Part shown: positions 1 to 64,000 of the stretch, piece by piece | Layout: each line of letters begins with the position of its first letter | Position numbering within the stretch: position 1 is the first letter of the stretch | Assembly: GCF_964194155.1 (NCBI RefSeq) | Contig: NC_135895.1 | Location: 89,528,001 to 89,592,000, forward strand | DNA: 64,000 nucleotides | From: Cetorhinus maximus | Taxonomy: Eukaryota | Direction of reading: 5' to 3' | The notes under the pieces: model-generated | Database searches by the model: none | What the model was told of the DNA's origin: nothing | Seen by the model: only the letters and a program-made list of their open reading frames with translations | Position numbers and translations under genes: made by a program

Positions 1-714
1 CAAAATGCATACCCTCACATTTTCCCACATTATATTCCATCTGCCAAGTTTTTGTCCACTCACTTAACCTGTCTATATCCCTCTGTAGACTCCTCACCAC
101 TTGCTTCCCCACCTATTTTTGTGTCACCCGCAAACTTGGCAATAGTACATTCATTTCCCTCATCCAAGTCATTAATATATATTGTAAATAACTGTGGCCC
201 CAGCACTGATCCCTGTGGCTCCACTAGTTATAGGTTGCCATCCTGAAAATGCCCCCCTTATCCCAACTCTCTGCCTTCTATTAGTTAGCCAATCCTCTAT
301 CTATGCTAATATACTACCCAAAACACCACGGGCTCGTATCTTATTAAGTAGCCTTGTGCGGTACCAAATATATTACATCTACTGGTTCTCCATTATCTAT
401 TCTGCTTGTTATCTCCTCAAAGAATTCTAATAGATTTGTCAGGCATGATTTCCCCTTCATGAATCCATGCTGACTCTGCTCGATTATATTATGTATTTCT
501 AAATGCTCTGCTATTACATCCTTTATAATAGACTCCAACATTTTCCCAATGATGGATGTTAAGCTAACTAGCCTATAGTTATCTGTTTTTTGTCTCCCTC
601 CCTTTTTGAATAAGGGTGTTACATTGGCAGTTTTCCAATCCTCTGGGACTTTTACAGAATCTAAGGATTCTTGGAAGATTATTACCAGTGCATCCACTAT
701 CTCTGCAGCTACTC
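1..714 (-). mobile_element. CR1-clade LINE fragment (ORF2 reverse transcriptase, decayed)
   Basis: Minus-strand translation gives VPEDWKTANVTPLFKKGGRQKTDNYRLVSLTSIIGKMLE...SQHGFMKGKSCLTNLLEFFEE...PVDVIYL, typical CR1 RT motifs. It continues towards the window start with frameshifts and a deletion. Confidence 0.95.
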
Positions 715-715
715 C

Positions 716-1322
716 CGAGGGAGGAGAAAGCAGGGAGAGAGAGATGAGATGGTGGGGAGAGAGTAGAGAAGGCGGGGAGTCAGGGGAGAAGGCGGAGAGA
801 CAGGGGAGAAGGCAGGGGGGACAGGGGGGCAGGGGAGAAGGCGGGGAGACAAGGGAGAAGGCGGGGAGACAAGGGAGAAGGCGGGGAGACAAGGGAGAAG
901 GCGGGGAGACAGGGGAGAAGGCGGGGAGACAGGGGAGAAGGCGGGGAGACAGGGGAGAAGGCGGGGAGACAGGGGAGAAGGCGGGGAGACAGGGGAGAAG
1001 GCAGGGAGACAGGGGAGAAGGCGGGGAGACGGGGAGAAGGCGGGGAGACGGGGAGAAGGCTGCAGGGGCTGGAGAAGGAGGCGGGGAGAGAGGGGAGGAG
1101 GAGGCGGGGAGAGGGAGGAGGAGGCGGGGAGAGGGGGAGGAGGAGGCGGGGAGAGGGAGGAGGAGGCAGGGAGAGTGAGGAGGAGGCGGGGAGAGGGAGG
1201 AGGAGGCAGGGAGAGGGAGGAGGAGGCGGGGAGAGGGAGGAGGAGGCGGGGAGAGGGAGGAGGAGGCGGTAGAGGAGTTGCAGAGGAGGTGGTAGAGGAA
1301 AGAGGGAGGAGGAGATGGATAG
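716..1322 (+). repeat. Purine-rich minisatellite: two related ~20-bp arrays (GGAGAAGGCGGGGAGACA(A/G)G, then GGAGGAGGCGGGGAGAGGGA)
   Basis: Tandem units are directly visible, and both arrays share the core GGCGGGGAGA. Confidence 0.95.
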
Positions 1323-1667
1323 AGGTGCTGAACACACAATGAAACTGAACTGGGAACTCACTTATTTCTACCACACTATTGATAATTCATTTCATAATGT
1401 GAAATCTCAGGCATTATATGATGCAGTATGCTTGTCTACTAGCTCCCCTCAATGGTGGTAACTGGTGTTTGTCGGAAGATCGGCTGACTAATGTAATATA
1501 AATTGTACTTCTGTAAAATATAAATATATAATATATAAAATATATATGTATACTGGACACAAATTATACAGCTAACAAGAACAATTCCTTCAAAACCAAC
1601 ATGAATGCTTTGGATAAAATTCACCAAAATAAATCTATTATTAATTACCATTCTAAAAAGCTGCGGC

Positions 1668-2007
1668 TTTTTCATTATTCTTTCATGCGATGTGGGGGTC
1701 GCTGGCACGGCCAGCATTTTTTGCTCATCTCTAATTGCCCTTGTACTGAGTTGCTTGCTCGGCCATTTCAGAGGGCAGTTAAGAGTCAGTCACATTACTC
1801 TGGGTCTAGTGTCACATGTAGGCCAGACCAGGTAAGGATGGCAGATTTCCTTCCCTAAAGGACATTAGTGAACGAGATGGGCTTTTATGATAATCGATGA
1901 TGATTATTATGGTCATTGTCATTTAAATACCACCAGTTGTCTCCGGAGCGTTAGCTGGGGCTGCTCGATTACTAGTCCAGTGGCATTACCACTATGCCAC
2001 TGCCTCC
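1668..2007 (-). mobile_element. tRNA-headed SINE with LINE-derived 3' tail
   Basis: The reverse complement starts GGAGGCAGTGGCATAGTGGTAAT (A-box-like). The body matches 27841-28145, and the tail (CAAGGGCAATTAGAGATG..ATGCTGGCC..GCCAGCGA) matches the LINE 3' ends at ~5652-5740 and ~22214-22295. Confidence 0.85.
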
Positions 2008-2959
2008 ATTACACCATTTAGAAAGTAATGGTAATTTGCTGCAGAACTCCAAATTTTTATATATATCTACATATAAAAGGGCAATAATCCTTGAAGCTAG
2101 AAAGTTACTTCACTCCTGAAAGTAAGACATTACAAAGAAAATGAACACACAATACACAGGACTGTGAAGGAATGCTACTTGTATTTTTATTCCAACACCT
2201 GGTCCTGGGAAAATCTTTGAAAAGGTTACCAACAATTGCAAGTGCAGATCATTTGATGCAAGAAAATGAAAACATACTTGAAGCACACATCACTTACAGA
2301 CAATGTTGGGAGCTTGCTTTCCCCAATTTAGGTCGATATGGGCACACGTCCCAAGGGATAGCAGCCTATAATCTACATCAATGCTTGTGTAAGAAGTATG
2401 GATATTGATTTCAAAATAATTTGCCCTGCCTCTTATCCAGCAATATCAATTACTTTTAGGGCTAGGTCAGTCATAGTCCATGCTTAAAAACTGACAAATA
2501 TGAATAATACTGAACGACAGATCGATTGAGCATAAGGGTTCTGTAAATTTGACCCACTCTCTCCTGGAAACCTCAAGCTTTCAACTGGAATAGAGACACA
2601 ATTAAATGCCATGGCTTGGGAAAGGGTTAAGCCGCAGCTGCTGTCTAATAATATAAGGTGCTAAAAAACATTCGCAATCTGAAATCTCTTGTACATTTGC
2701 TTCAAGGGAGTCCTGACAGAATTGATTTTATTTTATCCTGCCAAAAAATAACTTAATATAGATTTGAACTTCTCAAGTAGATGAAACATTAAAATAAAAG
2801 ACCAGGAGGGGTGGCGAAAGGTGTAAAATGTTGCATTAAGACAGCAAGGACCTCTGATAGCAAATACTGCCATTGACAAGAGCAATAGAAAAAAGTTCCT
2901 TATTGATTCACGTTTTTGTTTTTGGTTTAAGATTTTCAGTTATTGCCTGTGAAGCGCTG

Positions 2960-3146
2960 GATTATACAGCCCAACTGAATCTGGCTTTGATCGGTCTCTA
3001 AAAAAACTAGCAGATATTTCCATCGCGGATTCTAATGGAATTGGCTCAGAATTGATGTTAAAAATGAAGTAAAATGTGAAAAACTCAGTTGCTATATAAA
3101 CTGGTTGCAACGGTGCGGAGCCACATGATTGGGAACTGCCCTGATC
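2960..3146 (+). repeat. Local dispersed duplication, copy 1 (partner 4773-4966)
   Basis: Collinear shared blocks ATTATACAGCCCA, CAGATATTTCCATC, ATTCTAATGG.ATTGG.TCAGAATTGATGTTAAAAATGA, GAAAAACTCAGTTGCTATAT. Confidence 0.85.
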
Positions 3147-3899
3147 TATACAGAGCTAGCCCATTTACTATGCAGCAGCAATAGGGGTATTGGCAATTGG
3201 TCACAGTGCCTAGGTTAGAAAAAGGAAAAAGCAACTAGGAAAGTGATTCCTGATCATTATCCAGAGCTCCTGTTGGAAAATGTATGTCTGCAGATAGGAC
3301 CAAGATTGACAGTGATTTACCAGTCTGCTGATACTCTTTGTCTGAGCTATAACATAACTGGCAACTTGGATGAAGGCAACAGTGCTCATGGAATTGTGTC
3401 CCAACAAGAGTCAGCACTTCCAAAAGAAGGCAATAAGCAAAAAAAAAATCAAACAGAAGGCTCCTGTGTTGAGCAGGTAATAAAAATAAGGTTCTGATCA
3501 ATCCTCATTAAACTAAGCAAAAAAATCTGTTTAGCAGGACTTATCAGAGTTGATGTTAAAGATTCCAGTTACTTAAAGCGTTTCTCCAATGTCCTCATCA
3601 CAGAGTGATATGATACAGGTTCTTCCCCGCAATGTCACCACAGCCAAGCATTAAGTGGTGGCCAGGTATATGTACACAGAGAGGGCAAACTCCAAGCCAC
3701 TTTCTCGTGCTTTTGGTAGCTAGTTAACCCAAGGAGCAAATTATATTCTCTGTGACTGTGAGCAGTAGCCCTTCTCATCCTATTTATCTCTCTGCAGCTT
3801 TCATTACCCTCCTCCACTGTCCAGCTCAGTGGGACTACCCTCCCTTGATTCCACTCTTACCTTTGTGATTAAAGTCAGGGCATCAATACCAATACCAAC

Positions 3900-5321: not shown

Positions 5322-5740
5322 CTTAAACATTCATTCCCTCCACCACCAACACAATGACTGCAGCGTGCATCATCAACAAGATGCACTGCAACAACTTACC
5401 AAAGCTCCTTCAACAGCACGTTCCAAACCCAGAACTCTACCATCTAGAAGAACAAGGGCAGCAGATGCTTGGGAACACCACCACCTGCAAATTCTCCCTC
5501 CGAGCCACACAGCATCCTGGTTTGGAACTATATCACCATTCCTTCACACCACTGGGTCAAAATCCTGGAACTCCTTCCTTAACAGCACTGTGGGTGTACC
5601 TATCCCACATGGGCTGCAGCAGTTCAAGGCGGCAGCTCACCACCGCCTTCTCAAAGGGCAACTAGGGATGGGCAATAAATGCTGGCCTAGCCAGCAACTC
5701 CTACATTCCGTTAATGAATATAAATAAATAAATAAAAAGT
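5322..5740 (+). mobile_element. LINE 3' end (ORF2 C-terminus plus tail), same family as 21985-22295
   Basis: Translation PRTLPSRRTRAADAWEHHHLQ...GSKSWNSFLNSTVG.P.PHGLQQFKAAAHHRLLKG, followed by an (AATA)n tail. Confidence 0.85.
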
Positions 5741-18591: not shown

Positions 18592-19800
18592 TGACAAAAG
18601 AGGCATGCTGTCAAAGCTTTTTGTCTTGCGCTCACCAGATTGAAATCTTGCACTCACCAGACTGATGCAAGAATACCAAATTTCAAAGGGAGCAACAATT
18701 TATACTGCATGAGAAAAGGGTGCTAATTGGTTGGCAAGTGGACTCTGATTGGTAGAGGTGTTGCCTTGGAGAATGCAAGAGCGAACATTTACCCTCCAAG
18801 CTATTGTTTAAACTCAAAAAAGGCAAATCAACTCTGGTTGAGGGGCTGTCATGGGGAATGCACCAGGGAACAGTTGTCATCCATGCTTTTGTTTAATTGA
18901 TGAGGCACAATGCCTGGACATATTTTGTTTGCAGAAGACAGGGCTCTGCATATGAATAGATGTAGCTGCTAGCAAGCGTAAGTAAGCTACATTGTGAACT
19001 ATGTTGATAACCTTAAATTGGTTGTTAGTGTAGGCTGTACCAGTCTACCTTAAATTACTCTGGGAGAGTTTTTTTGAGAGAGTTAAATTACTCTGAGAGA
19101 GGTGTTTCAAAAATTTAAGCAAAAGGTGAAGCTAGCCTTTTCACACTGCTACTATGCAGTAGCAACATCGGTGGTGTTCTCTATTAACAGGATGCTACCG
19201 TCAAGCCAAAAAGACGTTCTGCCTAGCACACAAATGAGTAATGTGGCATATGAATTTCAGTGCTGGTGTGATGGCAGGTATGTAAGCCATACGTCCCAAT
19301 GACTGGTGGATCGCATCAAACAGCATGACCCTTTGGCTGTTCACGACAGAATACTGATCGTACTCAACCAGCCCGTGCTTGCAAAACTCAGAAATGTCCA
19401 ACATTAGATGCGATTCCGCGATTGGACAGCACTTACTGAGCAATCTCAGGTGTTCTAAGAATTACACTAACAACCGATTTAAGATTGTCAATTGAGCTTG
19501 CAATGTGGCTCATTGATGCTTTCTAGAAACTACATACATTTATTCGCAGGGCCCTGCCCTCTGCAAAGAGAAAGAATACATCCAAGCATTGCACTTTTTC
19601 ACTGGAACAAAGCATAGGGGGCAACTGTTCCCTGGTGCATTCACCATCGCAATGCCTCGAGCAGAGACCACTTGCCAACCAATCAGCACCCTTTTCTCAT
19701 GCAGTATAAATAGTTGTTCCCATTTAAATTTAGTATTCTTGCGTTGATCCTGATGAGTGCAAGGTGAAAAGCTTCGAAAGCGTGTCTCTTTTTTCAATAA
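18592..19800 (+). mobile_element. Penelope-like element 3' part (GIY-YIG endonuclease) with a 5' inverted copy of its pseudo-LTR
   Basis: PVYLKL.W...KDVLPSTQMSNVAYEFQCWCDGRYVSHTSQ*LVDRIKQH is GIY-YIG-like. 18592-~19035 is the reverse complement of ~19455-19800. Confidence 0.85.
19745..19780 (+). ncRNA. Minimal type I hammerhead ribozyme motif (decayed) in the Penelope pseudo-LTR
   Basis: CTGATGA (19750-19756)-GTGCAAGGT-GAAA-AGCT-TC, with a palindromic stem III (AAGCTT). Confidence 0.7.
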
Positions 19801-21984: not shown

Positions 21985-22295
21985 GTAAACCCACGACCAC
22001 TACCATCCAGAAGGACAAGGGCAGCAGGTAGATGGGAACACCACCACCTGGAAGTTCCCCTCCAAGTCACTCACCATCCTGACATGGAAATATATCACTG
22101 TTCCTTCACTGTCACTTGGTCAAAATCCTGGAGCTCCCTCCCTAATAGCACCGTGGGTATGCCTACACCACATGGGTTGCAGCGGTTCAAGAAAGCAGCT
22201 CACCACCACCTTCTCAAGGGCAATTAGGGATGGGCAATAAATGCTGGCCCAGCCAGCGAAGCTCACATCCCATGAATGAATAATAAAAAAAAAAC
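21985..22295 (+). mobile_element. LINE 3' end, same family as 5322-5740
   Basis: PRPLPSRRTRAAGRWEHHHL...SWSSLPNSTVG.PTPHGLQRFKKAAHHHLLKGN* followed by an A-rich tail. Confidence 0.85.
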
Positions 22296-27035: not shown

Positions 27036-27470
27036 TAGAGTTCAACCGAGCATTCATAATCAAGAATCCATTGCACGGTTGTGTCAACAAAATATCCAGA
27101 GCTGAGTACATTAAAACTAAGAATCACACTAACAAACAATTTAAAATTATCAGTTGGGCTTACAAGGCGGCACACATATGCTTGCTTGAAACTACATATA
27201 TTTATAAACAGGGCCTTGTCCTCTGCAAGCAGAAAGAACATGTCCCGCCATTGTGGCTTTTCTGAATTAAACAAAGGCATGGAGCACAATAGTTTCTTGG
27301 TGCATTTTCCATAGCAATGGCTTGACCAATCAAACTTGAGTTGCCAATCAATCAGCACCCTTTGCTCATGCAGTATAAATTGTTGCTCCCTTTAAAATTT
27401 GGTATTCTTGTGTCTGTCCTGATGAGTGTAAGATGAAAAGATTTGGCGGCATGTCTCTTTCTTCAGCAGT
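27036..27470 (+). mobile_element. Penelope-like 3' fragment with hammerhead motif (27414-27449)
   Basis: Collinear with 19400-19800; contains CTGTC-CTGATGA-GTGTAAGAT-GAAA. Confidence 0.85.
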
Positions 27471-27840
27471 GCATTGAAACCTTTGAAGTAGTAGAACAGA
27501 TGATCAACTGTTCCATTGTTTCAAATGCTGAATAGATGCCTACTTTGTCAATCAGTCAGCCATCCATTCAGCTATTAAAAGGCTCATGAGATAGATGAAA
27601 AATGGATGCATGTAAGGCTCAACAGGTAGGTCAAAACAAATGGTCAAATTGACAATCTAAAATCAAATCTCATACTACTGAATGCACAAAAGCACTTTAT
27701 TCACTGGAGAAAGTACTCAAATGCACCTGAATACTTTCACAATACTGGTCAGTTTATTGATCATTACCTTTTAAGAACAACATCCTATCATCAATTTATT
27801 TTATTAAAACACACTTGAATTCTCATACAGCATCTAATTA

Positions 27841-29070
27841 GGGGAAGGCGGTGCAATAGTGGTATTGTCGCTGGATTAGTAATTGAGAGACCCAGGGTAA
27901 TGCTCTGGGATCCCAGTTTTGAATCTTACCACGACAAATGGTGAAATTTGAATTCAATAAAAATCTGGAATTAAAAGTCCAATGATGACCATATTTTTTG
28001 TAAAAAACCCCATCTGGTTCACGAATGTTCTTTAGGGAAAGAAATCTGGCATCCTTACCTGGTCTGGCCCACATGCAGCTCCAGACCCACAGCAACGTGG
28101 TTGACTCTTAACTGCCCTCTGAAATGGCCTGGCAAGCCACTCAGTTGCATCAATCCGCCAAAAACTCTAAAAGGCATCAACGTAGGCACCAGAAATGACA
28201 ATAGCAAACTCAGCCCTGTCGACCATGCAAATTCCTCCTTACTAACATCTGGGGGCTCATGCCAAAATTGGGAGAACTGTCTCACAGACTAGTCAAGCAA
28301 CAGCCTGTCATAGTCATACTCATGGAAACATACCTCACAGAATTGCCCCAGACACGCCATCACTATCCAGCAGAAGTGGCAGCACAGTGGTATACAGTCA
28401 GAAGAGAGTTGCCCTGGGAGTCCTCAACATCGACTCCTGACCCCATGAAATCTCATGACATCAGGTCAAACATGGCAAGGAATTCTCCCGCTGATTACCA
28501 CGTACTGCAGCCCCCCACAACCACCCCTCAACTAATGAATCAGAACTCCTCCATGTTGAACACCACTTGGAGGAAGCACTAAGAGTGGCAAGGGCGCACA
28601 ACGTACTCCGGGTTGGAGACTTCAACGTCCATCACCAAGAGTGGTTTGGTAGCACCACTACTTACCAAGCTGACTGAGTCCTAAAGGACATAGCTGCTAG
28701 ACTGGGTTTGCGGCAGATAATGAGGGAACAAACAAGAGGGAAAAACGTACTTGAACTCATCTTCACCAACCAGCCTGTCACGGATACAGCTGTCCACGGC
28801 AGTATCGGTAGGAGTGACCACCGCATAGTCCTTGTGGAGACAAAGTCCCATCTTCACATTAAGGATGTCCTCCATCTATCATGTTGTGTGGCACTCAGTA
28901 CCACCATGCTAAATGGGATAGATTTTGAACAGATTTAGCAACTCAAGACTGGGCAACCATAAGGCACTGTGAGCCATCAGCAGCAGAAGAACTGTACTCA
29001 ATCACAACCTGTAATCCCATAGCCCAACATATCCCACGCTCTACCATTACCACAAAGCCAGGGGACCAAC
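27841..29070 (+). mobile_element. LINE 5' portion: tRNA/SINE-like head directly followed by an APE endonuclease ORF (decayed)
   Basis: A-box-like GGTGCAATAGTGG and B-box-like GTTTTGAATC, then NIWGLMPKLGELSHRLVKQQPVIVILMETYL...GDFNVHHQEWFGS...QTRGKNVLELIFTN...IGRSDHRIV. Confidence 0.85.
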
Positions 29071-29759: not shown

Positions 29760-31720
29760 ATTCGTTTTTCTGTTTCTGTATCAATTTCTTGGCTCTGCTT
29801 TGCTAAATTCTAAAATCATTCCAATCCTCAAGTTTACCACTCTTTTTTGGCAACATTATAAGTCTCATCCTGTGATCTAATGCTATCTTTAATTCATTTT
29901 GTTAGACACAGTTGGAGCATTTTTGCTGTAGGGCTTTTGTGCCTTAAAGAAATGATTATTTGTTCCAAATCATGCATTAATTAGAATCGTAGAAAGTTTA
30001 CAGCACAGAAAGAGGCCACTTGGCCCATCTTGTCTGTGCCAGCCAAAAAGCAAGCCACCCAGCCTAATCCCACTTTCCAGCATTTGATCCATAGCCCTGC
30101 AGGTTATGGCACTTGAGGCGCATATCCAGACGCCTTTTAAATGTGTTGAGGTTCCTGCCTCTACTACCCTTTAAGACAGTAAGTTCCAGACCCCCACAAC
30201 CCTCTGGGCGAAAAAAAAAACATTCTCATCTCCACTCTAATCTTTTTATCAATCGTTTTAAAGCGATGCCCCCCAGTCACTGACCTCTCTGCTAAGATAA
30301 GTAGGTCCTTACTATCCATTCTATCCAGGCCCCTCACAGTTTTGTACATCTCAATCAGTTCTCCCCTCAGCCTCCTCTGTTCCAAGGAGAACCCCAGTCC
30401 ACCCAATCTTTCCTCATAGTGCACTTTTCCAGTCTTGGCAACATCCTCATAAATCTCCTTTGTACCCTCTCTAGTGCAATTACATCTTTTCTGTAATGAG
30501 GTGACCAGAACTGCACACAGTACTTAAATTGTGGCCTAATGAAAAATACAGTTTCCAGCATAATCTCCTGCTCTTATATTCTGTGCCTCAGCTAATAAAG
30601 GAAAGGATTCCATATGCCTTCTTAACCACCTTATTGACCTGTCCTGCTACCTTCAGCTGTGGGCTTTCACTCCAAGGTCCCTAACTTCCTCTACATCTCT
30701 CAGTATTGTCCCATTAATTGTGTTCCTTTGCCTTGTTCTTTAAATGCCGGCCATTGCATGCCCACATTCATATCTTTAAATCTAATTTCCCAATCTAACT
30801 CAGCCAACTTGCCCCTCACACCTACGTAGTTTGCTTTGTTTAGATTTAAGACTCTAGTTTCAGACTTAACTAAGTCACTTTCAAATTTAAAATAAAATTT
30901 TACCATATAATGGTTACTCTTCCCTAGAGGCCCGTTTACTACAATTTAATTCACCTTCTCATTGCACAATACTAGATCCAAAACAACCTGTTTCCTATTT
31001 GGCTCATTCACATACTGATCAAGAAACCATCTTGCATACTTTCCATGAATTCGTCCTCCATATTATTACAAATTTGTTTTGACCAGTCCATATGAAAATT
31101 AAAGTCCCCCATGATAACTGTATTACCCTTACTACATGCATCTCTGATTTCATGATTTAGACTCTGTCCTACAGCTACTATTAGGGGGCCTATAAGCAAC
31201 TCACACCAACATTTTCTGTCCTTTGCTGTTTCTTAGCTCCACCTAAACTGATTCTACATCTTGATTTGTTGAGCTAAGATCCTTAATTTATTTCACTATT
31301 TATTATCAGGGATAGTCCTCCTACCTTTTCATTTTGCTTGTATCTTCTAAAAGAGTTAAGAATCCTGGACTATTTAGTTCTCAACATTGGTCAGTTTGCA
31401 GCCACACCTCCGTAACGACTATACAACCAAACCTATATATTTCTATCTGCACTATTAATTAATCTAATTTGTTGCAAATGGTTTGCAAAGATATTGTGCC
31501 TTTAAGTTTGACGGTTTTCTAATTTTCCCTGACATTGCCTTAGTCATTGATGCCTTATTGGCTTTGTACTCTCACTCTGCTTATTTTTATCCAAAATGCT
31601 GCTGTGCTCTGGCGCCTTGATATTTCCCTTGCTGCTTTTGAATTTACCCTTCCCTGATCCTCCCACCATCCCCTTTATTAGTTTAATGCCCTGTCTATTG
31701 CCCTAGTTATTCTACTCAAA
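29760..31720 (-). mobile_element. CR1 (ORF2 endonuclease region) interrupted by a second CR1
   Basis: VGVAYRPPNS...MGDFNFHMDW...LNLNKANYVGVR..LA..DW. The host frame rejoins as WPAFKE|LMHDLEQ across the insert. Confidence 0.85.
29983..30735 (-). mobile_element. CR1 3' end nested in the older CR1
   Basis: IRPQFKYCVQFWSPHYRKDVIALERVQRRF..., FSLEQRRLRGELIEMYK, and the 3' tail at 29983. Confidence 0.9.
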
Positions 31721-53789: not shown

Positions 53790-56302
53790 TGTCATGCTCA
53801 GTACAAGCATGAGGATATTGGATTTTACAGACTGTAAGGTCATACTTTGTGAAAGTGGCCACAAAAGGTGGCTGCAACTTCACATGTGACTGTGGGATTT
53901 AAACCATGGACAGCATTCGATTCTGTGGCCAACATTTAGTTAAACATGGACCTGAATGAGGGACGCAGCAGCTCATTAGACATCTCATTGTTTAAGGACG
54001 AACCAGTGTTTGAGGAATATAGGATTTCTAGGTTGTTTGTCTCAGAGTGCCATATTGAACAAAGGAGGGTTTTTGAGCTCAAGGTGGGGAAGAGATAAGA
54101 GTGAATGACCATTGTTAACTGCCATTGTATCGTGGTGGTCTGGCCCCCAGAAATGATAACCCTGCAGTCATGTGACTGAAACTAACTTTCAGGCACTGCA
54201 GTAAAATACCCTGAAACAAAGCAAATCCAGGAAAGAAACATCTGAAACCAGAAACATCTGAACCATCATAATTGAAGGTCTTCTAATGCAGCCAAAGTAC
54301 TGTACTTGTTCCAGCTTCCAAGTCCACCTTAGAACCAATCTCCTGGCTATTCATCTACAAGGGACTTTACAGATTCATGAGAATCCTTTGTTTCTAAAAG
54401 ACCTACACTCAAACTAAACTAAATTCAACTAAGACAACAAGAGGCCTGCACTGACATAGAGATTGAGTTATAAATCCCATTCTTATAATTACGGTTTTAA
54501 CATCTCTAATCTTTGTGTGTGATGGTGTGAGTGAGACCTGAGATTGAGATTTTGTGTTTTAAACATCCAGGGAAAGTGTGTGATAATAAATAACTTTCTT
54601 TATTTTTAAAATCCATTACAGGTGGAGACAGGAGAATTCATAATGGAGAACAGAGAAATGGCAGAGAAAATAAACAATTACTTTGTGTCTGCCTTCACAG
54701 GGGAAGATACAGAAAATATCCCAGAGATACTAGGGAACCAATGGACTTGTGAAAATGAGAAACCAAAATAAATTAGCATTAATAAAGAGGTAATATTTGA
54801 AAATTAACTGGATTGAAGATTGATAAATCCCCTGGACCAGATGAGCTACATCCCAGAGTGTTGAAGGAGGTGGCTATAGAGATAGTGGATGCATTTCAAT
54901 ATTCTATGGATTCTGGAACGGTTCCTGTAAATGTAAGCCCACTATTTAAGAAGGGAGGGAGGGAGAAAACAGAGATCTACAAGCCTGTTAGTTTGATGTC
55001 AGTAGTAGGAAAAATGTTAGAATCTATTGTAAAGGGGTTGATAACAGGTGACTTGGAAAATAATGATATGATTGGGCAAAGTCAAGATGGAGTTATGAAA
55101 GGGAAATCATGTTTGTCAGATCTGTTGGAGTTTTTTTGAGGATGTTACCTGCAGCATAGATAAAGGAAAACCAGTGGATGTGGTGCATTTGGATTGTCAG
55201 AGGCTTTTGATAAGGTGCCACACAGCAGGTTAGTAAACAAAATTAGAGCACTTGGGATTGGGGTAATATACTGGTATGGATTGAGAATTGGTTAGCAGAC
55301 AGAAAACAGTAGGAATAAATGGGTCATTCTCAGGATGGCAGGCTGTTACTAGTGGGGTACCATAAGAATCAGTGCTGGGGCCACAGCTATTCACAATTTA
55401 GATACACGATTTGGATGTGGGGACCAAATGTAATATTTCCAAATTTGCTGATGACACAAAACTAGATGGGAATGTTACGTTGTGAGGAGGATGCAAGGAG
55501 GCTTCAAGGGAATTTGGACAGAACTAAGTGAGTGGGCAAGAACATTATCCACTTTGGTAGAAAAAACAGAAAGGTAGGGTATTTCTTAAATGGTGAGAGG
55601 TTAGAAAGTGTTGATGTCCAAAGGAACCTGGATGTCCTTGTTCATGAGTCACTGAAAACTAGCATGCTGGTGCAGCAAGCAATTATGAAGGCAAATGGTA
55701 TGTTGGTCTTCAACGCTAGGGCACTTGAGTACAGGATAAAGATGTTTTACTGCAATTGTATCGAGCCTTGGTGAGACTGCACCTGGAGTATTGTGTACAA
55801 TTTTGGTCACCTTATCTAAGGAAGAATATACAGAATATGACACAGTGGATGTGGATAGGATGTTGCTCCTGGCTGATGAGCTTAGTACTAGAATAAGGGG
55901 CAGGCCATTTTAGACTGAGATGAGGAGGAATTTCTTGACTTAGAGGGTGGTGAATCTTTGGAATTCGCTACCCCAGAGGGCTGTGGAAGCTCAATCACTG
56001 AGTATGTTGAAGTCAGAAATCAACAGATTTCTGAATACTAATGACACCAAGGGATATGGGGTTAGTGGGGAAAAATGGTGTAAAGGCAGATGATCAGCCA
56101 GGATATGTTTGAATGGCGGAGCAGGCTTGTCAGATGGAATGACCTACTCCTGCTCCTATGTTCTTAAATCACTAAAAAGCCCGGTGCTGGAATTTATTTT
56201 AAATTAGGAAAAATCACTCTGAGGATAAGGAAATACACACACCTTACATACAAACATCCTGATTATGGACTGGAAGGGACCACACAAATTCTGTCCATAA
56301 CA
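53790..56302 (+). mobile_element. Solo LTR with 4-bp TSD (CAAG), interrupted by a CR1
   Basis: Termini TGTCATG (53790) and CATAACA (56302); CAAG at 53786-53789 and 56303-56306. Confidence 0.65.
54619..56165 (+). mobile_element. CR1 ORF2 RT to 3' end, 5'-truncated
   Basis: KSPGPDELHPRVLKEVA...LFKKGGREK..YKPVSL...SKFADDTKL...HLEYCVQFWSP; tail CTACTCCTGCTCCTATGTTCTT. Confidence 0.95.
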
Positions 56303-62132: not shown

Positions 62133-64000
62133 GACATTTACAGCACAGGAGGAGGCCATTCGGCCCATCGTGTCCGTGCCAGTCAACAAATATCTGACTG
62201 CACTAATCCCATTTTCCAGCGCTTGGCCCAAAGCCCTGAAGGTTATGGCAACGCAAGTAGATATTTAAGTGCTTCTTAAATGTTATGAGAGTTTCTGATT
62301 CAACCACCCTTTCAGGCAGAGAGTTCCAGACTCCCACCATCCTCTGGGTGAAGGAATTTCTCAACTCTCCTCTTACTTTTACTTCTTACCGTAAATCTAT
62401 GCCCCCTGGTTATTGACCTCTCTAATGGAAATTGCCGTCCTATCCACCCTATGTCCCTCATAATCTTATATACCTATATCAGATCCCCTCTCAACTTTCG
62501 CTGCTCCAAGGAAGACAACCCCAGCCCAAGCAGCAACCTGGTAAATCTCCTCTGCAACCTGTCCAGTGCAATCATATCCTTCCTATAATGTGGTGACTAT
62601 TCCAGTTGTGGCCTAACCAGTGTTTTATACAGTTTCAGTATAACTTCCCTGCTGCTCTTGTATTCTATGCCTTGGCTAATAAAGGCAAGTATCCCATACA
62701 TCTTCTTAACCACCTTATCTACCTGCTCTGCTACCTACAGGGAACTATGGCTATGCACATCAACATCCTTCTGGCCTTCAGTACTTTTCAGGGTCCTACC
62801 ATTCATATTTTAATCCCTTGCCTTGTTAGCCTTCCCCAATTGCATTACATCACATTTTTCCGGGCTGAATTCCATTTGCCACTGTTCTGCCCACCGGACC
62901 AGCCCATTGATATCCTCCTGCAGTTTACAGCTATCCTCCTCACTATTTACCACCTTACCAATTTTCGTGTAACCCGCGAACTTCTTGATCATGCCCCCTA
63001 CATTTAAGTCCAAATCATTTATGTACACCACAAACAGCAAGGGCCCCAGCACCAAGCCCTGCAGAACCCCACTGGAAAAATGCTTCCAGTCACAGAAACA
63101 TCCCTCTACCATCACCTTCTCAGCCTCCTGCCTCTCAGCCAATTTTGGACCCAACGTGCCACTTTGCCTTGGATCCCATGGGCTCATACTTTCTTGACCA
63201 GTCTGCCATGAGGGACCTTATCAAAACTCTTGCTAAAGTCCAAGTAGACCACATCAAATACATTACCTTCATCAACACTCCTAGTTACCTCCTCAAAAAA
63301 ATTTGATCAAATTTGTCATACATGAACTTCCCATAACAAATCCATGCTGACTATCCCTGATTAATCTATGTCTCTCCAAGTGCAGATATATTCTGTCCCT
63401 CAGAATTCTTTCTAGTAACTTCCCCACCACCGAGGTTAGGCTGACTGGCCTGTAATTTCCTGGTCTATCCCTTCCCCCCTGTTTTAATAATGGGACAACA
63501 TTAGCAGTCCTCCAGTCCTCTGGCACCTCACCTGTGGCCAGAGAGGATTTGAAAATTACTGCCAGGGTCCCTGATATCTCTTCCTTTGCCTCCCTCAACA
63601 GCCTGTGCTGCATCTCACCCGGGCCTGCAGGTTTAACCACTTTTAAGGCCGCTAGTACCTCCTGTCTCTCTATGTTAATTTCCTCTAATATTTCAAAGTC
63701 CTCCACCCTGGTTTCTATATCTGCGTCATCCTTTTCCATTCTGAAGGCCAACGCAAAGTATTCATTGAGGACTGTATCCATGCCTCCTGGGACCACACAC
63801 ACATTACCTCTGTGGTCCCTAATTGGCTCTACTCTTTCCCTAGTTATTCCCCTGCTCTTTATATATTTAAAAAACCCCTTTGGGCTTTCCTTTATTTTAC
63901 CCACAAATGCTTTCACATGCACTCCCTTAGCTTTCCTAATTTTCTTTTTAAGCTCCACCCTGCACTTCTTGTACTCCTCTAGGGACTCTGCCGTATTGAG
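62133..64000 (-). mobile_element. CR1 ORF2 (RT) to 3' end, relatively well preserved, runs off the window
   Basis: VPEDWRTANVVPL.K.GGRD.PGNYRPVSLTSVVGKLLE...SQHGF; SGVLQGLVLGPLLFVVYINDLD...WQMEFSPEKC. Confidence 0.95.

Follow-up and report, generated by a model that had tools for sequence, protein, structure and literature searches.

Can a tRNA-derived, RNA polymerase III (Pol III)-like head that runs directly into a LINE endonuclease be the native 5' end of a coding retrotransposon, or have two unrelated repeats simply come to lie side by side? The question is raised by positions 27841-29070 (+ strand) of the window, by which we mean the whole 64,000-nucleotide stretch of Cetorhinus maximus DNA that was analysed. 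Available passages of one paper (PMC10886601) give the textbook division, in which Pol II transcribes coding LINEs and Pol III transcribes non-coding SINEs. If read by Pol III, a LINE that has its own tRNA head and no terminators in its coding strand would break this division, and would be a natural way to test whether Pol III RNAs that are long and uncapped can act as mRNA.

Anatomy of the window copy

The element at 27841-29070 derives from a 3.3-kb LINE; this copy is decayed and broken at its 3' end and, with gaps counted, shares 82% identity with the family majority. The full LINE is made up, in order, of a tRNA-Thr-like head, a conserved body, a single frame for endonuclease and reverse transcriptase (RT), and a tail, without ORF1. 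A-box- and B-box-like motifs, a body shared with a SINE and an APE endonuclease, all named in the original prediction, are present in the window copy. The tRNA-Thr(AGT)-like head occupies 27841-27935, and the 5' ends of the family begin here. Its A-box remnant (27852-27862) is worn and its B box (about 27915-27926) is broken, with a 20-nt hairpin insert at 27891-27909; both boxes are clean in the family majority. The head is followed by an A-rich head-body spacer (27936-28003), part of which is deleted in this copy, and by the conserved body (28004-28147), which is nearly constant in the published shark and ray consensuses and corresponds, on by-eye alignment comparison, to neither the Deu nor the Meta domain. 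The linker and an Arg-rich leader (28148-28228) carry a deletion that takes out the out-of-frame AUG of the family. The APE endonuclease domain (28229-28850), interrupted by frameshifts and stops, begins about 80 nt past the body and leads into the beginning of the endonuclease-RT linker (28851-29070), where the copy ends upstream of RT, so that neither RT nor tail is present. The endonuclease motifs ETYL, GDFNVHH, TRGKNVLELIFTN and SDH all lie on the + strand, scattered across different frames with stops present, and the copy is therefore dead.

The window also contains a SINE at 1668-2007 (- strand), in which the final ~75 nt of the LINE follow directly on head and body. The head of the window LINE matches 1939-2007 of this SINE, and 28004-28145 is 86% identical to its reversed body (1745-1886) over 142 nt. 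The body had been predicted to belong to the same family as this SINE, and the alignment bears this out; the SINE itself, however, has a sister head type and does not belong to the same subfamily. Two 5'-truncated copies of the headed LINE, each with 3' end and tail, lie on the + strand at 5325-5732 (85% to the majority) and 21987-22294 (94%). Between body and endonuclease of the window copy there is neither a SINE tail nor poly(A), as had been noted. The lack of a target-site duplication, also noted, says little, since a long flanking duplication occurs in just one of 15 full-length copies and no duplication is consistent among them.

A canonical CR1 identity was considered for the element and rejected: the shark CR1 at 29997-30656 (- strand), the 3' part of a canonical CR1-type LINE from an abundant family that we used as a control, has a different tail and composition, and RT-type matches from other LINEs are below 45% identity. 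RT fragments of other LINE families, which share 27-36% identity with the Zenon protein, are found in the window at 401-709, 54801-55259 and 62591-63655. Immediately upstream of the element (27117-27465) is a further dispersed repeat, about 350 nt long, with two more copies in the window at 18645-19032 and 19455-19796. A viral-contig scan found nothing.

The head as the 5' end of the LINE family

We found that the head is the normal 5' end of the LINE family, and that head, body, APE and RT frame, and tail move as one unit in thousands of copies. A search of the genome (3.99 Gb) with 28060-28360 gave 5,388 candidates, and all 40 scored hits, one of them the window itself, span the junction. 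The stretch from the head through the junction is collinear in 23 of 29 other copies. When 20 of the more complete copies were extended to 10 kb, 19 finished in the tail seen at 5322-5740, mostly about 2.9 kb downstream; the full element ends in the tail at 5322-5740 and 21985-22295, a point that the original prediction had proposed to check. Exact 23-mers were counted 4,424 times for the body-to-LINE junction, 3,884 times for the endonuclease start and 2,987 times for the main SINE junction, with zero matches for each reversed control; these counts are lower bounds, with copies differing by about 6-10% from the majority (one of 16 by more). A search with the endonuclease only led upstream into body or head at 25 of 30 loci, a set in which one locus is the query and two repeat other loci. 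The remaining five break off at scattered points, and their flanks share no alternative 5' end and no ORF1.

These results bear on two ways in which the prediction could have failed, a junction that is single-copy and full-length LINEs with a different 5' UTR and an ORF1; the junction is multi-copy, and the loci picked by endonuclease mostly reach the head or body. A chance adjacency, or a local deletion that fused a SINE to a 5'-truncated LINE, would agree with the decayed state of the window copy and with nothing further. Set against 4,424 exact matches of the junction and its presence in the published consensuses of five species, the probability of such an accident is negligible.

The majority sequence, derived from 86 loci, is 3,299 nt long and comprises a 350-nt 5' region, 975 open codons and a short tail with an A-rich run. 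The 5' region holds only short frames and has no space for ORF1. With a 975-codon APE and RT frame and no other 5' end, the family agrees with the predicted single-ORF LINE that begins with a tRNA-like head. Pfam assigned Exo_endo_phos_2 and RVT_1 to the genomic copies, and the 3' ends of the copies read ATGAATGAAT followed by a short A-rich run. Of 171 variants shared among copies, 79 are synonymous in the coding frame and 42 in the AUG frame, a difference that shows coding constraint on the source elements. The fetched copies include no intact one, and the longest stop-free stretch is 502 codons. In a tree of 67 RT domains, which holds no named reference, the element is placed apart from the shark CR1 control and grouped with single-frame homologues (support 0.78). 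Only the 0.4-kb derivatives are short and non-coding in the sense of a SINE; the 3.3-kb coding LINE is not.

A pattern made from the loop and T arm of the head found two host tRNA-Thr(AGT) genes, which align to the head; by a manual count, roughly two thirds of the positions in the tRNA agree with the head, 20 of them by construction of the pattern. Among 12 other pattern loci, ARAGORN called two as tRNA-Thr(agt), both of them element heads without the 20-nt hairpin insert. It found no tRNA in the window or in seven loci with insert-bearing heads, and an Rfam scan of 27700-28300 gave no tRNA match and only weak snoRNA matches below thresholds. Internal A and B boxes of tRNA-gene origin are present in the family head and are decayed in the window copy. 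The body by itself folded no better than shuffled sequences (z -0.5), compared with z -2.6 for the head and z -3.1 for the whole 5' region. A Deu-domain or SacSINE1 identity for the body was rejected after by-eye comparison with the AmnSINE1/EbuSINE Deu alignment. In body and tail the element may resemble the LF-SINE consensus.

Several loci have features of their own. The two host tRNA-Thr(AGT) genes (L116:1469-1542 and L122:1491-1564) are each followed by a T run, and L122 also contains a SINE in which position 243 is joined to 3146, a third junction. At L060:711-1149, a LINE copy is preceded by about nine tandem repeats of a 50-nt piece of the head. L096 and L102, which are near-identical duplicates, carry a 56-nt tandem satellite from the LINE 3' region after a LINE fragment.

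T clusters, transcription and the start of translation

Oligo(T) and near-T4 clusters terminate Pol III transcripts, and a depletion of T runs on the sense strand was among the checks proposed with the original prediction. The depletion is clear. The 3.3-kb majority contains no T4 run, compared with 14, 11 and 9 such runs of A, C and G, and 184 kb of real copies contain 0.45 T4 runs per kb, compared with 5.0, 3.1 and 2.4. When shuffles keep the protein and its codon usage, 10.9 windows with at least four T in five are expected and one occurs (P 0.003); for TTT the expectation is 15.0 and the count four, with none of 3000 shuffles as low. Clusters of A, C and G are at expected levels in the synonymous shuffles (79 versus 65 for C). 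T4 alone is not significant under the strictest null (0 versus 2.05, P 0.09), while a looser null expects 3.7 (P 0.015). Six long open stretches from real copies all fall under their nulls for T clusters. The CR1 control from the same genome, in contrast, has 3.6 T4 runs per kb and 33 T-cluster windows versus 31.9 expected.

Related LINEs were represented by 68 of 80 metagenome loci, those with an open frame of at least 300 codons. In these controls, which are distant relatives with none demonstrated as a headless Zenon sister, the observed/expected ratio of T clusters has a median of 1.02 and a minimum of 0.48, compared with 0.09 in the shark element; two of the 68 frames likewise have no T4 run. 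Phe makes up 1.85% of the encoded protein, under the values of all 60 top homologues (minimum 2.27, median 5.0). The selective absence of T clusters from the sense strand points to transcription by Pol III. Among the metagenome loci, L190 (372 codons) and L248 (401 codons) have no T4 run and the lowest control ratios (0.56 and 0.48); L190 lies outside the group of the shark element in the RT tree, and the contigs of both end short of the 5' ends. Homologous single-frame proteins with low Phe (2.3-2.4%) are P0001, P0046, P0049 and P0054.

Judging from these sequence features, the source elements were probably transcribed end to end by Pol III from the tRNA-Thr-like head. Pol III would initiate at the head and read through the element because terminators have been selected away. 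Counting against this is the view, given in available passages of PMC10886601, that Pol III is weakly processive and that known Pol III elements do not exceed about 1.3 kb. PMC2666806 reports that retroelement RNAs made by Pol III had no need of ORF1p in a human L1/Alu assay. The missing ORF1 is no argument for Pol III, since its absence is general to Zenon, including a lepidopteran Zenon whose 5' derivative reportedly lacks a Pol III promoter.

The coding frame has its first Met near codon 290, past the whole endonuclease, with no in-frame AUG earlier, and ten AUGs lie upstream of the frame. Homologues mostly start with Met and a basic leader about 20-35 residues ahead of the first endonuclease motif, the closest of them (P0001) 31 residues ahead. 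At this distance the shark frame has AAT, overlapped by an AUG that is one base out of frame, and an equally Arg-rich leader follows. The frame offset of this AUG is retained in 40 of 55 copies, and just four scattered indels restore the frame. By eye, the same AUG and following letters are found in the main published consensuses of five species, and they are missing from one of three dogfish variants. We infer a one-base shift just after the conserved AUG, or else structure-directed entry.

Two other candidates for the start region were considered. Read-through from an upstream in-frame AUG-GCC-UAG was rejected: it would meet a further in-frame TAA in the linker of 12 of the 60 copies listed, and in two of five published species consensuses the linker is longer or shorter by a number of bases not divisible by three (by eye). 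A functional 35-codon upstream peptide is not supported, since 24 of 82 copies have TTG in place of its stop and the overlap shows no preference for either frame among its variants (6 versus 5 of 13).

Translation of the uncapped RNA would begin in a non-standard way close to the conserved AUG that lies out of frame. The element's protein would then recognise its 3' tail and bring about insertion by target-primed reverse transcription, which is established LINE biology. Internal deletions that keep head and tail probably gave rise to the SINE families, for which no further promoter capture would be needed. We propose tentatively that this may be an autonomous retrotransposon with a 3.3-kb mRNA made by Pol III. 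Terminators would have been removed from this mRNA to the point of altering amino-acid usage, and its translation would need neither a cap nor an in-frame AUG, relying on a one-base shift right after the conserved AUG or on structure-directed entry; such an element would be both a LINE and the parent of SINEs, with conservation in sharks and rays.

The head might instead be a captured tRNA or SINE module that serves as a Pol II promoter or an RNA-structure element in a capped Pol II LINE, which would avoid T for another reason, such as splice acceptors or U-rich decay signals. Non-LTR retrotransposons are indeed described as Pol II transcripts in available passages of PMC10886601, the 20-nt insert widens the spacing from A to B box in most heads, and the strict test on T4 alone is weak. 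On the other hand, the CR1 of the same genome, presumably a Pol II element, does not avoid T clusters, and the observed level of C clusters is contrary to what avoidance of pyrimidine tracts predicts. The A and B boxes, moreover, are retained across sharks and a ray, and ten upstream AUGs without an in-frame start fit cap scanning poorly. Transcription by Pol II is unlikely in our view.

The late in-frame AUG and the want of an intact copy among those fetched would also agree with a tRNA-headed form that is a Pol III-made passenger, copied in trans by the enzyme of a differently headed Pol II master LINE, with its own frame untranslated. Such a passenger would hardly be expected to keep a majority frame open for 975 codons or the excess of synonymous variants described above, and no other 5' end that could belong to a master was found among the loci picked by endonuclease. 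Junction and endonuclease-start counts are also alike genome-wide (4,424 and 3,884). Phe itself is reduced, implying selection on RNA and protein both. We regard the passenger as very improbable, and return to an autonomous element that is read by Pol III as the preferred reading.

Relation to Zenon, derived SINEs and other elements

The original prediction had left open whether the element was already catalogued. Judged by its sequence, the LINE family is already published as elasmobranch Zenon, with the consensuses CarCar_Zenon-1, ScyCan, RhiTyp, SquAca and HypSab (Stuart et al. 2026, PMC13343379). Two head motifs occur verbatim in CarCar_Zenon-1, whose first 400 letters agree by eye almost letter for letter with our majority and whose length is 3,288 letters compared with 3,299. 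Published consensuses from four sharks and a ray open with the same head (first 400 letters); it was not seen in the first 400 letters of the hagfish and coelacanth Zenon consensuses. Zenon is described as lacking ORF1 and having a poly(A) tail (PMC13343379, in the passages available), and our LINE family and elasmobranch Zenon share the absence of ORF1 and an A-rich 3' end. The head is not described in the main text of that paper, in which the words "tRNA" and "polymerase III" do not occur, and its available passages do not describe T-cluster avoidance, the missing start codon or derived SINEs. A whale shark preprint names CR1-Zenon only, in the part available. A keyword literature search, covering sources outside Repbase, Dfam and subscription journals, found no account of this tRNA head or of a Pol III-driven autonomous LINE. 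The existence of the family and its single-frame structure are not new. Three features that were checked against controls are real and apparently undescribed in print: a tRNA head that is the element's own 5' end, the avoidance of terminators, and a frame without AUG. With the family sequence already published, the value of the element lies in mechanism.

The SINE of the window joins family position 318 to 3219, and so do the 29 other copies fetched with it (30 of 30 junctions). Over all loci we found 41 SINE-like elements, 33 with the 318/3219 junction (a count inflated by the choice of query), five with a junction near 295/3220 and three others, so at least two SINE junction families exist. 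The 295-type SINE has the head alleles of the LINE majority, which fits a deletion product; for this one family, an origin of the SINE by internal deletion of the LINE is supported. The 318-type SINE has its own head alleles, by eye nearer to the published dogfish Zenon head. Two of 43 LINE heads resemble it and share no excess private coding changes, so a head exchange in the other direction is possible. The predicted descent of the SINE from the LINE by deletion is thus supported for the 295 type and likely for the 318-type SINE of the window.

In four public contig sets, the 318 joint was present in all four and the 295 joint in three, with cover in 30 of 30 bins; the reference for this comparison was L039, which has a SINE-type head, and the RNA nature of the sets is a guess and the contigs reveal neither start nor strand nor level, so they are not evidence of expression. 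LINE copies with SINE-type head alleles occur at L039:1913-2100 and L107; no excess of private changes is common to their coding parts, and SINE and LINE may have swapped heads independently in these cases.

A one-step origin of SINEs is offered by this family, with head, body and tail all from a single LINE. The LINE would also be a source for a conserved SINE body, of a kind that Kojima 2018 (PMC5786205, available passages) reported as not found, no LINE sequence like conserved SINE bodies having turned up there. In the scheme of that paper the head is added after the deletion, whereas the shark head is already on the full-length LINE. The same paper gives, in one sentence, an earlier case of an autonomous LINE with tRNA-like DNA, namely RTE-1_DAn and LINEs related to it; RTE-1_DAn belongs to the RTE clade, and the available passages do not discuss the position of the tRNA-like sequence, a promoter role or terminator avoidance.

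Lepidopteran Zenon, likewise single-framed, repeatedly sheds short internally deleted elements with both ends, such as the Persaeus SIDE (PMC6740152, in part). Persaeus is described there as having no tRNA homology and no Pol III promoter, in contrast to the shark deletion products, which are tRNA-headed SINEs. The Deu-SINEs SacSINE1 and LmeSINE1 (PMC5499810, available passages) also combine a tRNA head, a conserved body and a LINE-like tail, as the shark SINEs do; their partner LINE, however, is named as L2-2_CM in the same passages, and the Deu domain printed in the supplement of PMC7245038 is, by eye, unlike the body of the shark LINE. Small-RNA-derived Pol III promoters are also found in retroelements other than SINEs, the TRIMp3 elements Helenus, Ajax and Cassandra (PMC10886601, in the passages available), but these are LTR elements, 0.3-1.3 kb long, that are non-autonomous and do not code for RT.
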